Origin: a virus
Reading direction: 5' to 3' (one strand)
Length of the DNA: 22,135 nucleotides
UHGV virus genome: UHGV-0094927
The first letter of the stretch is position 1. Each line of letters opens with the position of its first letter. The translations under genes and the position numbers were made by a program. The notes below the pieces were generated by a model that searched no databases, was not told the DNA's origin, and worked only from the letters and a program-made list of their open reading frames with translations. Below, piece after piece: positions 1,650 to 4,352 of the stretch.

Positions 1650-2578
1650 AGATATCACTGGTCGTTCCTGTCTTCAATGAAGAGGAAGCGATACCAATTT
1701 TTTATAAAACGGTACGTGAATTCGAAGAATTGAAGTCATATGAAGTGGAAATTGTTTTCATAAATGACGGCAGCAAAGACGCTACGGAGTCAATTATTAA
1801 TGCTCTGGCTGTTTCAGATCCTCTAGTTGTTCCGCTGTCATTTACTCGCAACTTTGGTAAAGAACCAGCATTGTTTGCAGGGTTAGACCATGCAAACGGG
1901 GATGCGATAATCCCAATTGATGTTGACCTGCAAGACCCGATTGAGGTTATTCCTCATCTTATTGAAAAGTGGAAGGCAGGTGCTGATATGGTACTGGCTA
2001 AGCGCTATGACCGTTCTACAGATGGAAGACTGAAGCGCAAGACTGCAGAATGGTTCTATAAGCTCCACAATAAAATAAGCAACCCAAAGATTGAAGAGAA
2101 TGTTGGTGATTTCCGGTTAATGAGCCGTGAGGTTGTCGAAAATATCAAGCTTATGCCAGAGCGCAACCTTTTTATGAAAGGGGTGCTGAGTTGGGTAGGA
2201 GGCTCGACAGACATCGTCGAATATTCCCGCGCAGAACGTGTTGCTGGTAATTCAAAATTCAATGGATGGAAATTGTGGAATCTTGCGCTCGAAGGGATTA
2301 CAAGCTTCTCAACATTTCCCCTGCGCATATGGACTTATATCGGGTTAGTGGTAGCTGGCCTAGCATTTCTATATGGCGCATGGATGATATTTGACACGCT
2401 CGCATTTGGAAATGCTGTACGAGGATACCCTTCACTGCTGGTGTCCATTCTGTTTCTTGGAGGGATCCAACTAATCGGCATCGGTGTACTTGGAGAGTAT
2501 ATCGGGAGGATTTACATAGAAACCAAGGCAAGACCTAAATACATCTTAAAGGAGAAAATAAATGACAGGAAGATTTAA
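1646..2578 (+). CDS. gtrB: GtrB, bactoprenol glucosyltransferase (GT2 family)
   Basis: 310 aa, [20 protein letters not shown]...INDGSKD...[10 protein letters not shown]2-type N-terminal domain with two C-terminal TM helices. Recognised as GtrB of Shigella/Salmonella gtr operons. Translationally coupled to gtrA. Confidence 0.93.
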
Positions 2579-4352
2579 ATTACTACTTTTTATCTCGTTT
2601 ATTATTCTAGTGGCGATGAATTGCTACATTGGATATGGTTACACCCCGAGTTCTGATCAGGCTTCTGGTGTAATCATTTCACACGACATAGCAAATGGAA
2701 ACATTCTACTTTCAGGATGGTTTCTTTCAACCGTAACTTTCTATTTTACAGACCTTATTTGGTATGCATTGCTGAATATAATAGGTATCAGTAATAAAGT
2801 TCAATCATATTTAGTTCCGTCAATCCTTATTTCTGCTCTGACAATATGCTGCATAATACTTTCATATCACAAAAAGAAGTTGCCATGGGCAATATTCTTC
2901 TCATTTGGAATTCTAGGAGCTTATTCATCAAATATATTTAACCTTGCCGTATCACATATTGGGGCTTATTTATATACAGCAATTATTTATATTATAATAG
3001 AAAGAACAACCGTATACAAAGCTAACATACATCATTATCTCATTGTTTTTATCTTAAGCCTGGCCATATTTTTTAGCGACGACATAAGCAAATACGCATT
3101 TTTGATACCTTTAATTTCATCATTGGCAATTGAATTGTTTTACAAACGAAACAAAGTTCACCTGCACTATGCGGCATCTATATTTCTTGCCTTTATTTTA
3201 TCGAAAACACTCTTATACTACGCGCAAGAAATTGGCGGATTTCAATTACCAGGAATAGGTTATCCTAAGTTTGCCACACAAGAAGAATTTATTAATAACT
3301 TATATTTCTTATGTGTTGGTTTATTACGTCTTTTCGAAGCATATTTTTTTGGAATGGATATTGGGCTACAGTCTTTTTCATCCATAATTAGACTGTGCTT
3401 TCTATTGTTCTTTGTTTACATCATTGCTTCTAATGCAAGAAAAATAACAAGATTCTCAACCATTGATAGAGCTTTGCTTCTTACGGCGATTATAATGCCG
3501 TGCGCATTCTTATTTAGTAATATTCCATCAGCGGTTGAATCAATAAGATATATTGCTCCATCTGTAATTTTCGGGGCTGTATTCATCTGTAGAAATGTAA
3601 ATATAAGCCAAAAAACATCTTTATTCCTGCTTTCCTTGTCTTTTGTTAGCGGTGCCATAATTTATGGTAACGCCATTTCATTAGATAAAAGAAACCATGA
3701 AATTCATGATATTTCAAAATATATAAAGGAGCATAATCTTAAAGCAGGTTTTGCTTCATTTTGGTTTGCATCGTCAGTTTCATTAAATAGTGGTTCAGAG
3801 ATATCACCAGTAGTATTTAATAGCCATGAAGGAAGTGTAAAACCATTTTTATGGTTATCTAAAATAAATAATTATGAGCAAAACAATTCATTTATTATAG
3901 CTGATACTAAAGAAGACATGGACGCTGCAATAATACAATATGGAAGACCTGATGTAATTGATAAAGTAATGTCAAAGTTTATCTTAGTATGGAATGACGG
4001 GATAAATATACCATTTACCGGTTTTCACATGTTAACCAATTCAAAATACTTTGGTTCTCTAGGTTATAGTGATGAATTTCAAGTATGCAAAAAAGACGGT
4101 GCTACATTCTTGGTAACAGGACCATACAAACCTCTCAAGAAAGGTATGTATAAAATGCATATTGAAAAAAGTGGTAGAGGTGATGTATTAGGTGATATTG
4201 TAGCGTTTGGTGGTAAAAAATTAATTGCTAAAATCAATAATGTAGTTGACATGGATTTCTACATTGATAAAACCTATCCTGATGTCGAGGTGAGAATATA
4301 TAACTCAGACACAAGCTCATGTATTAGCTCAATTTCAATAGAGATGAAATAA
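2562..4352 (+). CDS. Type-specific O-antigen modifying transferase (gtr(type)/GtrC position): polytopic membrane domain plus about 240-aa C-terminal soluble domain; specificity unknown
   Basis: 596 aa, third gene of the gtr operon, overlapping gtrB by 17 nt. AAGGAG lies 8 nt upstream of ATG 2562. Residues 1 to about 350 are strongly hydrophobic with many predicted TM segments; the C-terminal part is hydrophilic. Markedly AT-rich versus the rest of the window. I do not recognise the protein as any specific Gtr type. Confidence 0.6.

Follow-up and report, generated by a model that had tools for sequence, protein, structure and literature searches.

Gtr operons give rise to a large part of the diversity of O serotypes in Shigella, Salmonella and E. 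coli, and to our knowledge the acceptor has been established for only a few of the type-specific transferases that these operons encode. We consider here the gtr operon of the virus genome UHGV-0094927, a stretch of 22,135 nucleotides analyzed as a whole (the window, in what follows). The operon consists of gtrA, gtrB and a third gene, gtr(type), whose product has 596 amino acids (aa), and it lies head-on to a gene encoding a tailspike (Table 1). A sequence-only reading of the window had singled out this third gene as an unusually long member of its class and a candidate for a novel O-antigen modification. The gene is confirmed as real and intact, selection acts on it, and its product is the type-specific transferase of the operon, a protein with the glycosyltransferase C (GT-C) fold that is remotely related to the GtrI protein of Shigella phage SfI and carries a domain that GtrI lacks.

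Table 1. Features of the gtr region of the window and, in the last row, O-antigen clusters of two E. coli strains considered in the text
Feature	Position	Strand	Description
int-remnant/gtrA spacer	937-1286	+	tRNA-3'-end-like stretch, attP-core type of Sf phages; presumably the gtr promoter
gtrA	1287-1649	+	120 aa; proposed flippase for undecaprenyl phosphate (Und-P)-glucose; Pfam PF04138 GtrA_DPMS_TM, E 3e-13
gtrB	1646-2578	+	310 aa; predicted bactoprenol (Und-P) glucosyltransferase making the lipid-linked glucose donor; Pfam PF00535 GT2, E 8e-32
gtr(type)	2562-4352	+	596 aa; GtrI-like GT-C glycosyltransferase with C-terminal domain resembling a carbohydrate-binding module (CBM)
membrane domain	2562-3680	+	residues 1-373; about 11 predicted transmembrane (TM) helices, N-terminus inside
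periplasmic alpha/beta domain	3681-4013	+	residues ~374-484; common to GtrI and the whole family
C-terminal extension	4014-4349	+	residues ~485-596; CBM-like beta-sandwich, absent from GtrI and short members
intrinsic terminator	4361-4383	.	hairpin, 10-bp stem with 6 GC pairs, then T-run
tailspike	4495-6288	-	597 aa; Pfam Head_binding, E 1e-64 (P22-type), and Beta_helix
O-antigen clusters	L068 44955-46285, L069 16486-17816		O176-family wzx/wzy clusters of GF66.2 and PSS-11

The gtr operon and its third gene

The first two genes are close to those of the Shigella serotype-converting (Sf) phages: GtrA is 88% identical to GtrA of phages SfI, SfII, SfIV and SfV, and GtrB is 91-92% identical to its Sf counterparts. 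Because of this close match of GtrB to bactoprenol glucosyltransferases, we take Und-P-glucose as the most likely donor. The third gene begins with ATG, 8 nt downstream from the Shine-Dalgarno sequence AAGGAG, and its start overlaps the 3' end of gtrB by 17 nt. Beyond its stop codon, the terminator occupies part of the 142-bp spacer that separates it from the convergent tailspike gene, a neighbor that the sequence-only reading had correctly placed. The locus has the usual marks of a gtr operon: gtrAB stand directly upstream on the same strand, the genes are borne by a prophage near int/att and a gene for receptor binding, and the third gene is low in G+C and encodes a polytopic protein. Among the assemblies with the gene are GCA_000601175.1, GCA_021089185.1 and GCA_024687625.1. 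The exact sequence of the gene is found in public assemblies, every time in the order gtrA-gtrB-gene-tailspike, and gtrA-gtrB come directly before a family member in nearly every related locus that has upstream DNA. The assignment of the gene as the third, type-specific member of the operon is thus well founded.

The G+C content of the gene is 32.1%, compared with 43-46% for gtrA and gtrB, 44% for the receptor-binding part of the tailspike gene and 50% elsewhere in the prophage, its structural genes standing at about that value. The counts on which the sequence-only reading relied (19 G+C in 60 nt at 2581-2640 and 30 in 60 at 17041-17100) are exact, but its view that a foreign composition sets this gene apart does not hold, as low G+C is the norm for genes of this type. 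Those of Shigella phages have 33.4% (gtrI), 31.8% (gtrII), 32.6% (gtrIV) and 33.3% (gtrV), and the orthologues of Salmonella, Xenorhabdus and Citrobacter have 32-33%. The protein is indeed longer than the Shigella type-specific proteins that we retrieved (GtrV, 417 aa; GtrIV, 437; GtrII, 486; GtrI, 506) and longer also than the 486-aa GtrC of P22.

Relation to GtrI

Direct searches gave little. Megablast of the gene found no match among 50,697 phage records and 5,426 complete E. coli genomes, and tblastn against the phage records found none at E <= 1e-3. Pfam and NCBIfam have no family for the 596-aa protein or for nine relatives tested, a profile search of PDB sequences returned only chance hits, and Foldseek returned nothing at E <= 0.001 from viral predicted structures (BFVD). 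A large protein database yielded 17 homologues, and all 17, along with all members of their clusters, are named hypothetical or putative membrane protein. The protein may therefore be called uncharacterized, as had been supposed, and no near-identical, already characterized Gtr protein came to light in the databases.

The homologues of E. coli are 98% identical to the window protein, and orthologues of 596-597 aa are found in Salmonella (73%), Enterobacter roggenkampii (60%) and Xenorhabdus bovienii (56%). More distant are a long group (603-607 aa, about 32% identity) and a short group (487-495 aa, about 33%). Members of the short group stop where the 596-aa protein reaches residue ~485, and short members of the family, at 484-495 aa, match GtrI in architecture. 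A profile built from an alignment of 17 sequences, with identity down to 22% (alignment A1), drew 5,079 representatives at E <= 0.001 from 1.84 billion proteins, a large family that has no name and no Pfam model.

It is through such profile or two-sequence comparisons, and solely through them, that the likeness to GtrI can be detected. Alignment A1 matches SfI GtrI by hhalign with a probability of 98.7% (E 2.3e-16) over 428 columns, taking in GtrI residues 32-505. In BLASTP the two proteins are 25% identical over a C-terminal stretch of 222 aa (E 4e-9), with the last residue of GtrI, 506, falling at residue 483 of the window protein. Since the full-length alignment with GtrI ends there, the 596-aa protein is a distant GtrI homologue with about 110 extra residues: the similarity is full-length, while the length of about 500 aa and the architecture of GtrI are not shared. 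This amends two points of the sequence-only reading. It had found no match to any Gtr type for a C-terminal soluble part of about 240 aa; that part exists (we find about 223 aa, residues 374-596), but much of it has its counterpart in GtrI, and only residues ~484-596 are additional. Also, it had looked for the extra length in an extended TM domain, whereas the excess is actually a C-terminal soluble beta-sandwich. GtrI itself shows a sub-threshold match to Pfam PMT_2 (16.7 bits against a cut-off of 26.1). By hhalign, the family shows no relation to GtrII, GtrIV, GtrV, HF4s GtrC and P22 GtrC (probability 0.3-3%).

The gene bears the signature of purifying selection throughout. Against the Salmonella orthologue, the ratio of nonsynonymous to synonymous substitution rates (dN/dS) is 0.14 in the TM part, 0.14 in the periplasmic alpha/beta domain and 0.17 in the extension; against the 98% identical E. 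coli allele it is 0.30.

Family members are also found in other settings. A metagenome-assembled genome of Citrobacter freundii (locus L016, 2367-4190) has a 607-aa long-form member, complete with the C-terminal domain, beside thrS and a different tailspike (Tail_spike_N); with neither gtrA nor gtrB adjacent, it would depend on gtrAB encoded elsewhere. In E. coli (loci L013-L015), gtrAB precede a short-form relative of 487 aa, and the prophage is of the myovirus type, with genes for baseplate J and tail-fibre assembly. This prophage and the P22-like prophages with the 98% identical long form have their insertion site, bioA-ybhB, in common, so that one site hosts different types of phage with different members of the family.

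Fold, topology and candidate active site

The AlphaFold2 model made from the 17-sequence alignment has a mean pLDDT of 83.2 and a pTM of 0.82, with only residues 109-130 poorly modelled. The membrane domain given in Table 1 was drawn from the columns of A1, the helices of the model and hydropathy. The loops predicted to be cytoplasmic (HKKKL, YKAN, RN and RKITRFS, in keeping with the positive-inside rule) alternate with loops that carry invariant polar residues. The latter residues, D32, H132, S172 and R329/Y330, together with the nearly invariant D173, are predicted to lie on the periplasmic face. The pair S31-D32 is invariant across the 17 sequences and aligned with GtrI D34. In the periplasmic alpha/beta domain, the motif G-[YF]-A-S-F-W occupies residues 396-401. 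SfI GtrI shares the acidic residue after TM1, and D32, H132, S172-D173, R329 and the GY.SFW motif are all conserved in the GtrI alignment.

The membrane core resembles that of solved enzymes of class GT-C_A (ArnT, PMT and PglB/AglB), and, as in such enzymes, an acidic residue follows TM1. No curated sequence family, Pfam PMT_2 or similar, takes in the protein. Conserved as they are, in GtrI too, D32, H132, S172/D173 and R329/Y330 may form the active site, a role also favored by mutational data on the analogous residues of Citrobacter ORF12 discussed below.

The C-terminal extension

The extension is similar in fold to solved CBMs of the beta-jelly-roll kind (CBM6/35/36/4-like). Its sequence matches no CBM family in Pfam, and its only match is PHROG 22113, which is labelled function unknown. 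Long members share the motif GPY-x(3)-[LI]-x(2)-G-x-Y; in the window protein, a motif of the extension occupies residues 520-530. A hidden Markov model of the last ~110 residues of the close long forms matches 28 of 166 family representatives, about one in six, including distant ones down to E 1e-13. Since distant long members match, the extension is an old and recurrent accessory domain of the family rather than a peculiarity of this phage. The role of this CBM-like domain is probably to keep the O-antigen backbone, before its modification, close to the active site. In the literature, our search turned up nothing specific on a GtrC bearing a CBM or on gtr genes of Salmonella Cerro.

Comparison with known systems

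Each element of this picture, the three-gene system, the fold and the union of a GT-C enzyme with a CBM, has a precedent. The nearest for the system is SfI GtrI, which likewise is encoded by the third gene after gtrA-gtrB, near int/attP in a prophage, at about 33% G+C. The differences are considerable. Identity is only about 23-25%, and GtrI has no counterpart of the ~110-residue beta-sandwich. GtrI comes from a myovirus-like phage, where its gene lies beside tail-fibre genes, while the window gene is part of a P22-like podovirus prophage and lies beside a tailspike gene. GtrII, GtrIV, GtrV, P22 GtrC (Salmonella family I) and GtrC of the HF4s/epsilon34 type have the same position in the operon, the same logic of a type-specific GT-C enzyme working with a shared GtrA/GtrB, and low G+C, but at 410-486 aa and without the extension, they show no detectable relation in sequence.

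The nearest precedent for the architecture is ORF12 of Citrobacter youngae O1, the founding member of CAZy family GT136 and a periplasmic transferase that adds side chains after polymerization (PMC11127046). ORF12 is a GT-C enzyme whose 11 TM helices are accompanied by a small helical domain, placed after TM1. At its C-terminus, residues 503-652 form a beta-rich CBM to which the mannose/rhamnose O-polysaccharide binds in unmodified form (PMC11127046). Its essential residues D31, H106 and R349/Y350, as far as the description in that paper allows a comparison, are comparable in position to D32, H132 and R329/Y330 of the window protein (PMC11127046). The donor, however, is Und-P-ribofuranose, provided by a synthase that depends on phosphoribosyl pyrophosphate and by a MATE flippase, where the window has GtrA and GtrB, and orf12 is chromosomal, in an ABC-transporter O-antigen locus, where the window gene is borne by a prophage (PMC11127046). 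Mycobacterial EmbC and AftD, which act in arabinan synthesis, are also GT-C enzymes with lectin-like CBMs, but they are much larger, use decaprenyl-phosphate-arabinose, have other acceptors and are not phage-borne. What is new in the present case is an unnamed family tied to GtrI, an accessory domain in a Gtr enzyme and a hypothesis that specifies the acceptor.

The tailspike and its association with the gene

The receptor-binding domain (RBD) of the tailspike offers a clue to the glycan concerned. Its identity to the tailspike of FSL SP-031, 038 and 049 is 76.6%; these virulent phages were isolated on Salmonella Cerro and have in common a tail-fibre allele of their own (PMC3728262). The RBD is also 27% identical to TSP3 of phage CBA120, which cleaves the O77 antigen of E. 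coli (PMC10408124).

The 596-aa protein and the tailspike vary together from genus to genus. At the other E. coli locus, GtrC and the whole tailspike are each 98% identical to those of the window; the corresponding figures are 73% and 75% in Salmonella and 56% and 73% in X. bovienii, where the adjacent ejection protein can barely be aligned. Family members at 25-36% identity adjoin unrelated receptor-binding domains. Between two E. coli prophages, window positions 1157-6300 make up a single block of 97.9% identity that runs from gtrA through the tailspike gene. Cross-genus co-variation and this block together support a functional coupling of GtrC and tailspike.

The sequence-only reading went further, taking receptor recognition and receptor modification to form one exchangeable module. 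The co-variation in E. coli, Salmonella and Xenorhabdus is in its favor, but the RBD is also found in other company. In the complete E. coli genomes GF66.2 (L066 4546-5898) and PSS-11 (L067 4771-5898) it occurs at 98.8% nucleotide identity within a P22-like prophage at argW, beside a phage gene for an O-antigen polymerase, not gtrABC. The homology stops within the tailspike gene, about 30 nt short of its 3' end. The gtr genes and the tailspike gene are therefore better regarded as separately exchangeable cassettes at one hot spot.

The chromosomal O176 wzy gene is annotated as frameshifted in both GF66.2 and PSS-11. In these strains the host polymerase may have given way to the phage Wzy, which would be an alternative route to serotype conversion within the same lineage of phage.

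The likely acceptor

Both GF66.2 and PSS-11 have an O176-family wzx/wzy cluster with manB/manC, genes for two glycosyltransferases and a GlcNAc-PP-Und 4-epimerase (Table 1, last row). The O176 repeat is linear, ->4)-a-Man-(1->2)-a-Man-(1->2)-b-Man-(1->3)-a-GalNAc-(1-> (PMC8244359), and close to the backbone of the O77 group, whose serogroups differ by glucose side branches added by Gtr systems (PMC7685785). The nearest relatives of the O176 Wzx are found in Salmonella, mostly Cerro (59%), C. freundii (58%) and X. bovienii (53%), followed by E. roggenkampii and the E. coli O77 group (49%), so the taxa holding an O176-like Wzx coincide with those holding GtrC orthologues. The cluster of Salmonella orthologues numbers 532 sequences, largely from serovar Cerro. 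Taken together, the link of the RBD to phages of S. Cerro, the O176 hosts and the overlap of taxa make the Man3-GalNAc backbone a probable acceptor. The best candidate in particular, on the strength of these sequence comparisons, would be a mannan of the O176/O18 type, to which we give about an even chance.

GtrI is the type I-specific glucosyltransferase and attaches glucose by an alpha-1,4 linkage to GlcNAc of the serotype Y backbone. The host O-antigen in the present case is very probably another. Since it is probably of the O176/O18 type, the GtrI acceptor, GlcNAc in the S. flexneri backbone, would be an unlikely one.

Proposed mechanism and alternatives

We propose that GtrB would load glucose onto Und-P, GtrA would carry the lipid-linked donor to the periplasmic face of the membrane, and the 596-aa, 11-TM GT-C enzyme would then transfer glucose onto the O-antigen of the host, with the C-terminal beta-sandwich holding the unmodified backbone close to the active site. 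The acceptor would be the mannose-rich Man3-GalNAc repeat of the E. coli O176/Salmonella Cerro (O18) type, the same glycan that would be read by the tailspike. Lysogens would in this way alter the receptor of their own type of phage and gain a new O-antigen epitope. In its general form, that glucosylation takes place in the periplasm by a three-component system in which this protein is the acceptor-specific transferase, we hold the proposal with good confidence.

A fuller version of the proposal is more doubtful, though worth stating. Perhaps the product is a hitherto unrecognized glucosylated variant of the linear Man3-GalNAc polymer (O176 with a glucose branch) that has counterparts in S. 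Cerro, E. roggenkampii and X. bovienii. The CBM would then recognize the polymerized mannan, and the phage lineage would escape its own tailspike either by glucosylation or, as in GF66.2 and PSS-11, by means of a phage polymerase.

Several considerations weigh against the proposal. GtrI is the only member of the family with demonstrated activity, and identity to it is low, as noted above. Because the protein falls outside every Pfam, NCBIfam and CAZy-type family, the predicted catalytic residues rest on conservation and analogy. The count of 11 TM helices is itself a prediction, as the segment taken for TM3 (about 108-130) is hydrophobic but has a pLDDT below 50. The likeness of the extension to CBMs is one of fold, with no match in sequence to any CBM family, and in the precedent that has been tested, ORF12, the over-expressed enzyme did not need its CBM for catalysis (PMC11127046). 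The link to O176 is indirect: GF66.2 and PSS-11 are closely related to one another and do not have this gtr(type) gene, and the hosts of known O type are carriers of the tailspike, with no strain carrying the gene among them. Finally, that S. Cerro O18 has the backbone of O176 is a presumption, which draws on the 59% identity of the Wzx proteins.

Some of these considerations would suit a GT-C transferase of the Gtr system that acts on another acceptor, such as a different O-antigen or another glycan linked to Und-PP (the enterobacterial common antigen or capsule), the association with O176 being a coincidence. The O176 evidence does come from two related genomes that have the tailspike and not the gene, and there are families of Salmonella GtrC with no detectable effect on the O-antigen (Davies et al., PMC3688519). 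Against this, the RBD stays with the gene in three genera and matches that of phages isolated on S. Cerro, and the taxa with orthologues of GtrC are those with O176-like Wzx. We consider another acceptor unlikely.

Much less probable still is a decaying gene, no longer acting, in a defective prophage. It is true that the adjacent integrase gene is truncated at its 5' end and frameshifted, that many entries for the S. Cerro orthologue are partial, and that one E. coli cluster member, on a complete chromosome, has 274 aa. However, the reading frame is intact at 596-597 aa in E. coli, Salmonella, Enterobacter and Xenorhabdus, each of its domains is under purifying selection by the dN/dS values given earlier, the gene has a good Shine-Dalgarno sequence and a terminator, the structural genes downstream are intact, and the partial S. 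Cerro entries lie at the ends of contigs.

In the position of gtrC, Salmonella may have acyltransferases, namely the family II GtrC/OafA-type proteins. That the window protein is not a glycosyltransferase at all but an acetyltransferase, an enzyme of the polymerase/ligase type or a membrane protein for superinfection exclusion can draw on this precedent and on the phage O-antigen polymerase that fills the same slot beside the same tailspike in GF66.2 and PSS-11, but it is most improbable, the protein having the GT-C fold and no Acyl_transf_3 or SGNH domain by Pfam.

If the acceptor-specific transferase of a glucosylation system is indeed what the gene encodes, and the O176/S. Cerro O18-type mannan its acceptor, several things would follow. 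The enzyme would explain a side branch of the O-antigen in a Salmonella serovar associated with cattle. Within E. coli O176 it would mark out a cryptic variant, invisible to genoserotyping by wzx/wzy. Also, the enzyme and its tailspike would provide a matched pair for the study of temperate phages that alter their own receptor. Whatever the outcome, the acceptor offered is concrete and can be tested.

Prophage surroundings

Upstream of gtrA (window 1-996) lies the remnant of an integrase gene. Some 80 codons are missing from its N-terminal end, and a frameshift divides what is left into two open reading frames (50-682 and 643-936; 210 and 97 aa). The DNA at 33-996 is 97% identical to the corresponding stretch of SfI/SfV, and in the SfI record the attP core is annotated within that stretch, in the int-gtrA spacer that corresponds to ours. 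In view of this identity, the window holds an int-attP-gtrAB cassette of the Shigella-phage type inside a P22-like prophage, without a working integrase. In a metagenome contig with an identical region, host genes (Mn catalase and DUF892) abut the integrase remnant. ARAGORN found no complete tRNA in 937-1290. Nor did the same interval contain the four-GATC/OxyR signature of phase variation known from Salmonella gtr promoters; it has two GATC sites only (1123 and 1229), so nothing suggests phase variation of that kind.

On the other side of the tailspike come P22-like ejection and head genes. A gp16-type ejection protein (6453-8846, - strand) has 797 aa and includes an SLT lytic-transglycosylase domain at its N-terminus as well as a linker rich in Q and P. 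In the relatives with a 98% identical gtrC, the ejection protein has 665 aa and aligns only from residue 208 of the window protein onward, which places a mosaic junction within the ejection gene.

In Salmonella GCA_970595615.1, contig CCHFOP010000001.1 contains the orthologue with gtrB and the tailspike gene twice, at 109-121 and 151-163 kb, about 42 kb apart. The two copies are flanked by different integrase genes, and the arrangement suggests two related prophages or a duplication. Such doubling may explain why so many S. Cerro entries are partial and end with a contig.

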